A stretch of DNA of 64,000 nt from an uncultured Candidatus Saccharibacteria bacterium (GTDB taxonomy: Bacteria; Patescibacteriota; Minisyncoccia; Phycocordibacterales; UBA918). Position numbers and translations under genes: made by a program. The notes beneath the pieces are model-generated. The model ran no database searches. It had not been told where the DNA came from and was given only the letters and a program-made list of their open reading frames with translations. This document shows positions 1,892-37,997 of the stretch, piece after piece. The DNA is taken from contig CAZSOS010000001.1 in assembly GCA_964608605.1 (NCBI GenBank), forward strand, positions 117,888-181,887, read 5' to 3'. The stretch's first letter is position 1, and every line of letters starts with the position of its first letter.

Positions 1892-1937
1892 ACCAGTGAG
1901 AGTGGCCGCGCGAGCATACGCGCGGCCAAGCTATTTT

Positions 1938-3293
1938 ATGACCAAAGAAGCCTTACAAAAAAAGAAGCTGCCTGACGCACCCGGGGTGTACTTTTTTCTG
2001 GGTGCCCGGAAAGAGATACTCTATATCGGCAAGGCCACTTCACTACGCAATCGGGTGCGCAGCTACTTCGCGCCGGACATCAAGGACAAACGCTCGGCCC
2101 TGATCGAAAAGATGGTGTCGGAGGCTAAGAGTGTAGAGTCGACCGTGACCGACTCGGTCTTGGAGGCGCTCATCCTCGAAACCAACCTCATTCGCACCCA
2201 CAAGCCAAGGTACAACACCATCTCCAAGGACGATAAGAGCTACAACCACCTCATCATCACCGATGAGGAGTGGCCGCGGGTTTTGGTGGTGCGCGGCAAA
2301 GACCTTGATGGTTATACCAGTCTGACTAGTATAAGAAATAATGTAAATACTAGTCAGACTGGTATAAGCTATCACTTCGGTCCGTTTCCAAACGGCCAGC
2401 TATTTCGCGAGGCGCTGAAGATCGTGCGTCGCCTGTTCCAGTTTTATGATACCAAAGAGCCGGTGGGCACGGAAAAGTCGAAACTAGTACGCGGCAAGAT
2501 CGACTTCAATCGGCAGATCGGCCTTTACCCCCACACCAACTTTTCCGTAGCGCCGGAGGCGCGTCAGTCTTCAAAGAAGACTGACAACGGAAAAGTTGGT
2601 GTGGGGGTGTACCTGAGCGAAGTCACGCAGGCGAAGAAGGACTATCAACGTACCATCCGCTATATCCGACTTTTCTTTGAAGGCAAGAAAGGACAGATCA
2701 TCAAAGAGTTAGAGAAAGAGATGAACGCCTTGGCCAAGGAAGAAAGGTTCGAGGAGGCTAACGTCATCAAGAAGAAGGTGTTCGCGTTGCAGCACATTCA
2801 GGACATCGCCCTTATCAAGGATGAGAGCCGCGTCTATCGCGACGAGAATTCTGTACGCATCGAGGCCTACGACGTGGCGCATCTTTATGGCAGCGACATG
2901 GTCGGCGTGATGACCGTGGTCGAAGGCGGGGAAATGAAGCGCTCTGAATACCGCAAGTTCAAGATAGAGAGCGTTACCGGATCGAACGACCCGGCGGCTT
3001 TGCGCGAGGTGTTGGAGCGCCGCCTGCATCACGTGGAGTGGCCCTTTCCACAGATCATCGCGGTCGATGGTTCGACGGCGCAGAAGAACGTAGCCGAACG
3101 GGTGCTTAGAAAGCGCGGACTGATGATACCGGTGGTGGCGGTCGTCAAAGACGACCGCCACCGTCCCGTCCGCGTCCTCGGCCCGGCCTCGCTTCTCAAA
3201 AAACACCACGACGCTATTCTCTTGGCGAACGCCGAGGCCCACCGATTCTCTATCGGTTTCCACCGTGAGCGACGCGGGCGGAGGTTAGGGTAG
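1938..3293 (+). CDS. uvrC: Excinuclease ABC subunit C (UvrC), GIY-YIG plus endonuclease domain, lacking C-terminal HhH; carries two in-frame palindromic insertions
   Basis: PGVYFF...YIGKATSLRNRVRSYF GIY-YIG motif, FGPFPNG, C-terminal EAHRFSIGFHRERR; ATG 1938 preferred over GTG 1896 by alignment to UvrC N-termini. Confidence 0.85.
   Translation: MTKEALQKKKLPDAPGVYFFLGARKEILYIGKATSLRNRVRSYFAPDIKDKRSALIEKMVSEAKSVESTVTDSVLEALILETNLIRTHKPRYNTISKDDKSYNHLIITDEEWPRVLVVRGKDLDGYTSLTSIRNNVNTSQTGISYHFGPFPNGQLFREALKIVRRLFQFYDTKEPVGTEKSKLVRGKIDFNRQIGLYPHTNFSVAPEARQSSKKTDNGKVGVGVYLSEVTQAKKDYQRTIRYIRLFFEGKKGQIIKELEKEMNALAKEERFEEANVIKKKVFALQHIQDIALIKDESRVYRDENSVRIEAYDVAHLYGSDMVGVMTVVEGGEMKRSEYRKFKIESVTGSNDPAALREVLERRLHHVEWPFPQIIAVDGSTAQKNVAERVLRKRGLMIPVVAVVKDDRHRPVRVLGPASLLKKHHDAILLANAEAHRFSIGFHRERRGRRLG
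2312..2368. repeat. Palindromic element type 1, copy A, in-frame within uvrC
   Basis: TTATACCAGTCTGACTAGTAT ... ATACTAGTCAGACTGGTATAA; ~20-bp perfect inverted repeat around AT-rich 14-nt loop; near-identical copy at 13028-13078. Confidence 0.85.
2526..2609. repeat. Palindromic element type 2, nested inverted repeats, in-frame within uvrC
   Basis: ACCCCCACACCAACTTTTCCGT (2527-2548) perfectly complementary to ACGGAAAAGTTGGTGTGGGGGT (2587-2608); inner palindrome GTCAGTCTTCaaaGAAGACTGAC (2563-2585). Confidence 0.8.
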
Positions 3294-7797: not shown

Positions 7798-7840
7798 GTG
7801 GGTATAAAAAGGCGGCCCAAAGGGCCGCCTTTTTATACCC
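7798..7840. terminator. perfect palindromic terminator
   Basis: GGGTATAAAAAGGCGGCCCaaaGGGCCGCCTTTTTATACCC. Confidence 0.75.
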
Positions 7841-12716: not shown

Positions 12717-14132
<1,416 letters not shown>

Positions 14133-35324: not shown

Positions 35325-35421
35325 GGTAGAGGCGCGAAAAAGGCGGATCATATGATCCGCCTTTTTCGCGCCCGGCGCTCACTTTGCCGAAAACAGGTGT
35401 GCTATCATTTAAAGACAAATT

Positions 35422-37013: not shown

Positions 37014-37997
37014 ATGATCGAAACGTTTGAAGTACGGCGACCGCGGAGGTACGCGTGGGTGAAGGCGGGCGGGTTTGCCTTGTTTCTTTTGGTGGCTATT
37101 TTTAGCGCGCTCGCATGGCAAACCCGCCCGCCCGCCGACTTCCCGGTCAATGACGCGGTTGTGATCACTCGCGGTCTGTCGGCCTCGGAAATAGCCGATC
37201 TGATGAGCGAACGCTCCGTCACGCGTTCCAGCCTGTTCTTGTATCTGACCCTGGTCTGGCGACATGACCCGAACAACATCCAGGCCGGCACGTTCCTTTT
37301 CGATCGGCCCTTGAGCGTTTTTGAGGTGGCCGAGCGCATCACCACCCTTGGCGCCACCGAGAATCTGGTGGTACTGACCCTCCCCGAGGGCTACACCGCC
37401 AAGGAATTCGCTTATCTGGCGGAGGGATCATTGCCGAATTTCAATGAAGCTGAATTCGCCGCGACCGCCAAAAGCAAGGAAGGTTATCTTTTCCCGGACA
37501 CCTACTATCTGCCCGCCGATTTTACCAATGTCGAACTGCTGGAGCTGCTTTTAGAAACATATCAGCAAAAAACCGCGGGACTGCGAGAGAGAATGATCGA
37601 TCATCCTCTTGGTGAACGCGGAGTGCTCATACTGGCTTCCCTGATCGAGCGCGAAGCCAACACGGAGGAGTCCATGCGTTTGGTCTCGGGAATACTGCAA
37701 AACCGTCTCAACGAAGGCATGCGCCTCCAGGTCGACGCTTCCATGGAGTACGTGCTGGAGCGGCCATTAAACACTCTAGGACCGGAAGATCTGGAAAGTG
37801 ACACGCCGTATAACACTTACCTGTACGGTGGTCTGCCGCCCACGCCGATCGGCAATCCTGGTCTGCGCGCCATCGAAGCGGTGCTGGAACCCCTGGACAG
37901 CGATTATCTCTATTATGTCACGGACGCGGAAGGAAAGTTCTATTACGCCGAGACGTTCGACGAACATCGGGCAAATATTGCACGCTACTTGCGTTGA
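37014..37997 (+). CDS. mltG: endolytic murein transglycosylase MltG (YceG-like)
   Basis: N-terminal TM anchor, LASLIEREA and YNTYLYGGLPPTPIGNPG YceG signature. Confidence 0.85.
   Translation: MIETFEVRRPRRYAWVKAGGFALFLLVAIFSALAWQTRPPADFPVNDAVVITRGLSASEIADLMSERSVTRSSLFLYLTLVWRHDPNNIQAGTFLFDRPLSVFEVAERITTLGATENLVVLTLPEGYTAKEFAYLAEGSLPNFNEAEFAATAKSKEGYLFPDTYYLPADFTNVELLELLLETYQQKTAGLRERMIDHPLGERGVLILASLIEREANTEESMRLVSGILQNRLNEGMRLQVDASMEYVLERPLNTLGPEDLESDTPYNTYLYGGLPPTPIGNPGLRAIEAVLEPLDSDYLYYVTDAEGKFYYAETFDEHRANIARYLR

Follow-up and report, generated by a model that had tools for sequence, protein, structure and literature searches.

Palindromic doublets in uvrC and atpD

The stretch of DNA analysed here (the window; 64 kb, to whose positions all coordinates refer) carries two copies of a short palindromic element, one inside uvrC and one inside atpD, with an organization like that of REPINs, the dimers of repetitive extragenic palindromic (REP) sequences. 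The host genes and the two copies are as follows.

1935–3293, + strand: host gene uvrC, 451 residues from the ATG; Pfam domains GIY-YIG (residues 16–94), UVR (255–286) and RNase H-like (305–440).
2312–2367, no strand assigned: REPIN-like doublet in uvrC, encoding YTSLTSIRNNVNTSQTGI; perfect arms, absent from orthologues.
12726–14132, + strand: host gene atpD (F1 beta, 468 residues); Pfam beta-barrel (residues 6–72) and nucleotide-binding domain (142–356).
13027–13078, no strand assigned: REPIN-like doublet in atpD, encoding a 16-residue peptide; arms the same as in the uvrC copy.

The original prediction described a palindrome with two perfectly complementary arms and an AT-rich loop in uvrC and a second copy in atpD, and both copies are confirmed. 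In uvrC the 21-nt arms (2312–2332, TTATACCAGTCTGACTAGTAT, and 2347–2367) are 100% complementary and enclose a 14-nt AT-rich loop (2333–2346). The atpD copy has identical arm sequence in 22-nt arms (13027–13048 and 13057–13078), again 100% complementary, around a shorter loop of 8 nt. What had been overlooked is that each arm is itself a near-palindrome, with the 21-nt unit consensus TATACYAGTCWGACTRGTATA, so the element is a dimer of two inverted units. The left unit in uvrC (2313–2333) reads TATACCAGTCTGACTAGTATA and the right unit (2346–2366) reads AATACTAGTCAGACTGGTATA, with a 12-nt spacer (2334–2345) between them; the units of the atpD doublet are at 13029–13049 and 13056–13076. Folded on itself, the left arm has one C-A mismatch and the right arm the complementary G-T pair.

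The element is 51–57 bp long, and its GC content is 29% vs 55% for the window. Allowing ≤ 3 mismatches, the arm 16-mer CCAGTCTGACTAGTAT has eight matches in the window where 0.21 are expected (reached in 0/100 shuffles), and the core AGTCWGACT occurs four times (0.42 expected), confined to the four arms. RNA folding gives −36.4 kcal/mol (z = −9.8) for the uvrC copy and −34.6 kcal/mol (z = −9.5) for the atpD copy; as DNA, single units fold with −3.4 and −6.4 kcal/mol and the dimers with about −21 to −22 kcal/mol. No direct repeat is present outside the palindrome at the flanks of either copy (GG before and GC after it in uvrC, GT and AG in atpD).

Reading frame and position in the host proteins

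Both copies are in the frame of their host gene; UvrC reads ...DLDG-YTSLTSIRNNVNTSQTGI-SYHFGPFPNG, and the translation of uvrC agrees with the earlier claim that no frameshift or stop codon is added there. Each strand of the element has one stop-free frame only, the remaining frames holding TGA, TAG or TAA. Because the unit is near-palindromic, the arms encode the Ser/Thr-rich peptides YTSLTSI...TSQTGI in either orientation. The original prediction had the same peptide encoded in both orientations. This is correct for the arm peptides (YTSLTSIYIISYTSQTGI in one copy), where it follows mechanically from the symmetry of the element, but the loop peptide differs.

In UvrC the doublet (insert 1) corresponds to residues 126–143, and a further insert (insert 2, described below) to about residues 198–225; both are between Pfam domains. 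In AtpD the insert (residues 102–117) lies between the beta-barrel and nucleotide-binding domains. An AlphaFold model of UvrC (84 orthologues, mean confidence score pLDDT 77) gives a pLDDT of about 52–58 for insert 1 and < 50 for insert 2. The AtpD insert is an alignment gap relative to the solved F1-beta chain 2qe7_D, its 13 extra residues being absent from solved chains; from this gap and the general architecture of F1, the loop is probably exposed at the surface. A low-confidence predicted linker in one protein and a variable loop between domains in the other are consistent with the earlier proposal that the element is kept in frame where the protein tolerates it. We infer that the surviving copies are transcribed and translated as 16–18 extra residues in the UvrC inter-domain linker and the variable F1-beta loop, and that the insert is near-neutral for the host. 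Removal as an intein, as an intron or by bulge-helix-bulge excision was considered and rejected: the element is much too short and lacks catalytic features, and its preservation of the frame argues for translation. A DNA uptake sequence was rejected on its density, which is far too low.

The element is inserted and patchily distributed

UvrC was compared across 120 orthologues, the window protein (P0001) among them. Judged by the names of UvrC homologues at 66–69% identity, the window comes from a bacterium of the Parcubacteria/Kaiserbacteria kind, within the candidate phyla radiation. Typical orthologues have 406–411 residues vs 451 in the window protein, the excess being two inserts with net gains of 15 and 30 residues. 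The first of these, the doublet, is missing from 117 of the 120 proteins; the carriers are P0001 and P0002, with a doublet, and P0005, with a single unit (EYTSQTGIS). In L012, a relative with syntenic gene order (uvrA-uvrC-ddl...atp operon), AtpD closely resembles that of the window (78% nucleotide identity over the alignment compared) but lacks the element, with GKEKIKNAPLRAIH where the window protein has GKEPV-(16 residues)-KRRAIH.

These 117 orthologues and the L012 atpD agree with the prediction that the element was inserted and is not ancestral; its residues are not found throughout the lineage, and other copies exist. The net gain relative to the nearest orthologue is, however, 15 codons in uvrC and 13 in atpD, rather than the 19 codons first proposed. 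The element is also, as suggested, a dispersed repeat, with identical arms in two unlinked genes and in the uvrC of another organism, and with single, apparently intergenic units in metagenomes. It is found in three independent assemblies, the NCBI window, Logan SRR33696243 (L002) and ENA ERZ27311181 (L003), with loops that differ and in one case as a single unit.

The UvrC of L002 (P0002) has 84% amino acid identity to the window protein over aligned columns. At the nucleotide level, the two genes are identical in 41/41 positions of the arms, 7/13 (54%) of the loop, 240/300 (80%) of the flanks and 60/100 third codon positions; had the arms diverged at the rate of the flanks, such identity would have a probability of about 5e-5. 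Flank identity is not elevated beside the element, so a recently transferred uvrC segment does not explain the identity of the arms. In L003, uvrC has a single unit, TATACTAGTCAGACTGGTATA, at the same codon as the window doublet. A neighbour-joining tree of UvrC returns the three carriers as monophyletic in 0/100 bootstraps and pairs them with insert-less sisters (P0001 with P0003, 80/100; P0005 with P0027, 100/100; P0002 with P0021, 49/100). Such a distribution implies either several independent insertions at one codon or many losses of the element. On sequence comparison, the retention of the exact arm sequence (beyond its pairing) fits sequence-specific recognition by a protein or recent independent insertion; in both cases the system would have to be active.

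The empty L012 uvrC site contains TTAC, and both empty uvrC sites contain TAY-GACT; this is possibly coincidence.

RAYT-like transposase genes are bracketed by palindromes of the same family

A scan of JGI metagenomes with the degenerate unit returned eight loci, all perfectly symmetric single units located outside long open reading frames (ORFs) where checked (apparently intergenic; the ORFs of other loci carry no homology annotation). Four of the eight loci come from one sample (Ga0102931; five units on four contigs). On contig L005 a unit starts 2 nt past the stop codon of a 232-residue ORF, a copy with one mismatch ends 7 nt before its ATG, and a third unit is located 780 nt upstream. The window arm and the flanking unit of L005 are identical in 20/21 nt. 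The L005 ORF encodes a Y1/HUH transposase (Pfam Y1_Tnp, PF01797; 32.8 bits, cut-off 23) with > 600 homologues, which where named are called ‘transposase [Patescibacteria group bacterium]’ or ‘REP element-mobilizing transposase RayT’. Genes of REP-associated tyrosine transposases (RAYTs) are flanked by REP monomers or dimers (PMC3733652).

Five further independent loci (L013, L014, L015/16, L017/18 and L019/20) were chosen by similarity of the protein and not by DNA motif. In 6/6 independent loci the transposase gene is bracketed on both sides by palindromes, either monomers or dimers, with the AGTCWGACT core (AGTCAGGCT in L017). The flanks are 46-nt dimers in L013 (...ACACAAGTCTGACTTATGT abutting ACATAAGTCAGACTTGTGT...), the palindrome CCCTTAGTCTGACTAAGGG in L014, the palindrome TTTAAACTAGTCWGACTAGTTTAAA in both L015/16 and L019/20, and dimers with the variant apex in L017/18. 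The units of the flanking dimers resemble those of the window element in their one-sided C-A/G-T asymmetry. The transposase family keeps the HUH motif NHFHL and the tyrosine motif YxRYVxxYIxxKN. In the diverged L015 and L019 the gene occupies the same syntenic slot, with 75% identity vs 50–97% for its neighbours; in these relatives a syntenic, apparently single-copy transposase gene would be behaving as RAYTs typically do. The taxonomy of the metagenomic loci is taken from the names of the transposase homologues only, and a tblastx comparison found no genes shared between these loci and the window or L012.

In L017 (9615–11851) and L018 (1035–3271) the RAYT-like gene and its flanking dimers are directly upstream of atpD, which is also the host of the element in the window.

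Elsewhere, scanning genome contigs with a 19-nt arm gave one match, a single unit in a metagenome-assembled genome of a Clostridiales bacterium with 31% GC (L001, 5406–5424), read as YTSQTGI within a 1453-residue surface protein. It is treated as chance since about four chance matches are expected. Single 21-nt palindromes or arms are found in contigs of differing composition, one each in L008 (1882–1902, GC 46%), L010 (3414–3434, 29%) and L001 (31%). The unit may therefore be more widely distributed or spread horizontally; the counts are near chance, yet all metagenomic matches are perfectly symmetric. No match to the unit was found in a scan of viral contigs or by blastn against plasmids and phages, and Rfam returned only sub-threshold matches to generic (miRNA) hairpins.

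Origin of the element

We think it likely that the elements are REP-type dimers (REPIN-like) of a RAYT-associated family in bacteria of the candidate phyla radiation, kept only where they are in frame in a tolerant linker. The proposal of a selfish palindrome filtered by reading frame, as in Rickettsia palindromic elements (RPEs), is supported, and the comparison is apt as a description of behaviour. Because the arm resembles the RAYT-flanking palindrome (20/21 nt; 6/6 loci), the element is closer to REP/REPIN than to an orphan RPE. In a mechanism modelled on REP/RAYT and IS200/IS605, the unit would fold as a hairpin in single-stranded DNA; the transposase would recognize the conserved apex (T)AGTCWGACT(A) and then copy or move the unit. 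Mobilization by a Y1 transposase is thus inferred from these better known systems. Selection would filter insertions into coding sequence (stops in two of three frames on either strand), and the only survivors would be copies that land in the single open frame, have a length divisible by three and fall in a linker or loop where the protein tolerates them.

Several observations weigh against this interpretation. Only two doublets (four units) are present in 64 kb, far below classical REP densities. Three filled/empty comparisons (uvrC and atpD of the window with L012, and L003 with L022) each show three codons of the empty allele replaced (YDC, YDY and KNA); judged from these alignments, the element is no clean addition and fits simple cut-and-paste poorly. 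Neither a target motif nor a target duplication emerges from the same alignments, the flanks have no motif in common, and the TA duplication for which the original prediction advised a check is not visible in the aligned orthologues. A search of 1.84 billion representative proteins with a profile of the four window-derived translations found an in-frame doublet in no other protein; its only matches were four unrelated proteins, leucine-rich or with repeats. (A synthetic 42-column profile with randomized flanks gave 27 candidates, none scoring; true carriers, predicted at 33–45 bits, were probably missed by the word index.) No Y1_Tnp gene was found by tblastn and profile search in the window or in the fragments of close relatives. 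The link to the transposase is built on a 20/21-nt match to a single metagenomic contig, whose taxonomy is unproven, and on the core shared by five other loci. The L005 protein scores 29.3 bits against the NCBIfam RAYT model NF047646, below the cut-off of 80, and its PDB profile search yields a weak match only, to ISDra2 TnpA (E = 0.17). Unlike REPs, the hairpin foot has no GTAG/CGTC, and it is the apex AGTCWGACT that is conserved instead; the feet are T(T)ATAC, TTTAAAC, CCCTT, ACACA or AGAG, and GTAG occurs only inside the L017 unit.

A RAYT-REP system might do more than leave passive passengers behind. That the same uvrC codon is filled in three non-sister lineages, with 41/41 arm bases identical, could mean that the system re-places or maintains dimers at defined codons of essential-gene loops, an idea to which we give only a small chance. 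If true, essential genes would be deletion-proof safe havens through site-specific re-insertion; alternatively, a transposase or RNase III acting at the intragenic hairpin would couple repair and ATP-synthase expression to single-stranded-DNA or stress states.

Other origins fit the data less well than mobilization by a RAYT-like enzyme. The element could be an orphan, RPE-like selfish palindrome whose spread is unrelated to a Y1 transposase (another transposase, template switching or recombination), its copies possibly immobile relics and its resemblance to the RAYT flanks coincidental or secondary. We regard this as unlikely. It agrees with the absence of a transposase gene from the window, with the low copy number and with an insertion that replaces three codons, and RPEs themselves behave alike without a known transposase (PMC3733652). 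Other palindromes in the same uvrC loops (the 2527–2608 family, and L021) likewise suggest tolerance of the loop over a specific enzyme. An orphan would not be expected, though, to match in 20/21 nt of its arm a palindrome that brackets a Y1 transposase gene. At five more loci of this gene family, selected by protein similarity alone, the palindromes to either side of the gene share the core or, in L017, have one nearly identical to it. Nor does relic status account for arms that agree in 41/41 bases between lineages with 80% identity in the flanks.

An exapted function, in which the hairpin or the peptide is under host selection (a 21-bp RNA stem for RNase III or translation pausing, a protein-binding site in DNA, or a surface loop), is improbable to a somewhat greater degree. 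In its favour, even synonymous positions of the arms are unchanged from one lineage to another although the loop has drifted, RNA hairpins of high stability are predicted, the same uvrC codon position is filled in three non-sister lineages, and the enrichment of intragenic REPs in repair genes is unexplained (PMC3733652). Conservation of exact sequence fits a sequence-specific protein such as a transposase at least equally well, however, and 117/120 orthologues, nearest sisters included, do without the insert. Moreover, uvrC and atpD are functionally unrelated, the insert regions are of low confidence in the UvrC model, and one lineage keeps a single unit, which is unable to form the long stem.

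That no insertion took place at all, the element being an assembly or library artefact or an ancestral loop palindromic by accident, is effectively refuted: the source genome is a metagenome-type assembly and in more distant UvrC clades a loop of eight residues shows a Y-T...I pattern (e.g. EQYTDDEI) loosely like YTSQTGI, but three independent assemblies from different archives have differing loops, the frame is kept in two genes, plasmid and phage collections have no match, and identical 21-mers in uvrC and atpD are impossible as ancestral loop sequence.

Comparison with known mobile palindromes

The REP/REPIN-RAYT systems are similar in that the unit is a near-palindrome of ~21 nt that forms a hairpin, the stem of which permits G-T pairs in one strand and has C-A mismatches in the opposite one. 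The window dimers consist of two inverted units and a short spacer, an architecture also seen at L013 and L017, and in relatives palindromes of this family stand on both sides of a Y1/HUH gene whose syntenic position is conserved. In-frame intragenic copies that encode ~20 residues, notably in excision-repair genes, are common to both; REP monomers and dimers within genes, a documented minority, encode 20–30 residues in frame and are frequent in uvrA/B/C, uvrD, polA and recBCD (Di Nocera et al., 2013; PMC3733652). In contrast to classical REPs, whose stems are GC-rich, the element is AT-rich in a GC-rich genome. The 64 kb of the window contain two dimers, each within a gene, and no intergenic copy. 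In contrast to the extragenic location typical of REPs, all copies in the window, L002 and L003 are within uvrC or atpD. The enzymes form a distinct family of ~230 residues, far under the NCBIfam cut-off for RAYTs. Our literature search on REP/RAYT or REPIN in the candidate phyla radiation (Patescibacteria) found no paper linking them.

RPEs were reportedly the subject of work by Ogata et al. in 2000 and 2002, and RPE-1 is roughly 100–150 bp long. The present element shares with them the insertion of palindromes in frame into essential genes of a reduced-genome bacterium, an apparent tolerance in loops and a patchy distribution among orthologues. It differs in being 51–57 bp long and in belonging to another phylum, a distinction drawn from length and host. 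A further difference is that no transposase is known for RPEs, whereas the present repeats are linked to the genes of one family of Y1 transposases. That palindromic repeats can be in frame in essential genes is already known from Rickettsia (summarized in PMC3733652).

Members of the IS200/IS605 family of insertion sequences have left and right ends with different sub-terminal hairpins, are multi-copy and move as a unit. They and their derivatives (e.g. archaeal palindrome-associated elements) resemble the present system in the PF01797 Y1 HUH enzyme, the hairpin ends and the lack of an obvious target duplication. Here, by contrast, one and the same palindrome lies on either side of the gene, which keeps its syntenic position in diverged genomes as a domesticated RAYT would. 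Miniature inverted-repeat transposable elements (e.g. the Correia elements of Neisseria) are also short, non-autonomous inverted repeats that are sometimes co-transcribed or translated with host genes. They differ in having termini of DDE-type insertion sequences and a target duplication (e.g. TA); here no parent insertion sequence of this kind and no unambiguous duplication was found, and the enzyme is of the Y1 type only.

The element is a new case of a known habit of the REP/RPE type, selfish palindromes tolerated inside proteins. If our interpretation is right, the REP/REPIN-RAYT association would extend to the candidate phyla radiation, with its tiny, gene-dense genomes and almost no intergenic room, and RPE-like protein-coding palindromes would gain a plausible enzyme, which the RPEs of Rickettsia still lack. 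The 21-nt unit, the 230-residue enzyme family and the defined filled and empty alleles make a compact test case for the filtering of selfish hairpins by reading frame and protein structure, and allow a test of the recurrence of excision-repair genes as hosts noted in PMC3733652. For annotation, they are a warning that low-GC inserts of 15–30 residues in conserved proteins of these bacteria may be repeat DNA.

Other palindromes in the window and in relatives

A second palindrome in uvrC, overlooked by the original prediction, behaves like the main element and is unrelated to it as a repeat.

2527–2608, no strand assigned: second in-frame palindromic insert in uvrC, of a different family; its perfect arms are 22 nt long (ACCCCCACACCAACTTTTCCGT) and enclose 38 nt containing two small hairpins.

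The arms start CCCCCACACC, the encoded peptide is about PHTNFSVAPEARQSSKKTDNGKVGVGV, and the predicted fold is Y-shaped (−66 kcal/mol). It is present in 4/120 UvrC orthologues, and these carriers are not monophyletic. Copies at the same codon in L003 (1213–1280) and L021 (614–679) show two fully compensatory arm changes (A-T, G-C and C-G at one pair). A third small palindrome, CCTGCCT accggac AGGCAGG, is found in L021 (413–436, in the uvrC of P0007) and encodes PTGQAGL in the UvrC loop that holds the main element. It appears that hairpin inserts from several families accumulate in this UvrC loop.

A 16-nt perfect inverted repeat with a 37-nt spacer (GGCGGGCGGGTTTGCC, 37064–37132) is located in the N-terminal membrane anchor of a YceG/MltG-family gene (37014–37997) and may be another coding palindrome (~0.001 expected by chance). 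Between two genes, 35331–35372 is a perfect spacerless palindrome of 42 bp, GGCGCGAAAAAGGCGGATCAT followed directly by ATGATCCGCCTTTTTCGCGCC. Many GC-rich hairpins with 3-nt loops follow genes (at 7800, 22051, 25237 and 47900) and are probably terminators. Among relatives, L015 (16777–16805) and L019 (16897–16929) share the position of a 13–15-bp hairpin (3-nt loop) within a KsgA/RrnaAD methyltransferase gene, with arms that differ in sequence; this hints at other conserved or recurrent intragenic hairpins in genes of the candidate phyla radiation. Within uvrC itself, a perfect 13-bp hairpin (GGTGGCGGTCGTC aaa GACGACCGCCACC, 3134–3162) occurs in the conserved UvrC segment VVAVVKDDRHRP; the protein sequence there is kept in nearly all orthologues examined, so this hairpin is probably a by-product of codon choice.

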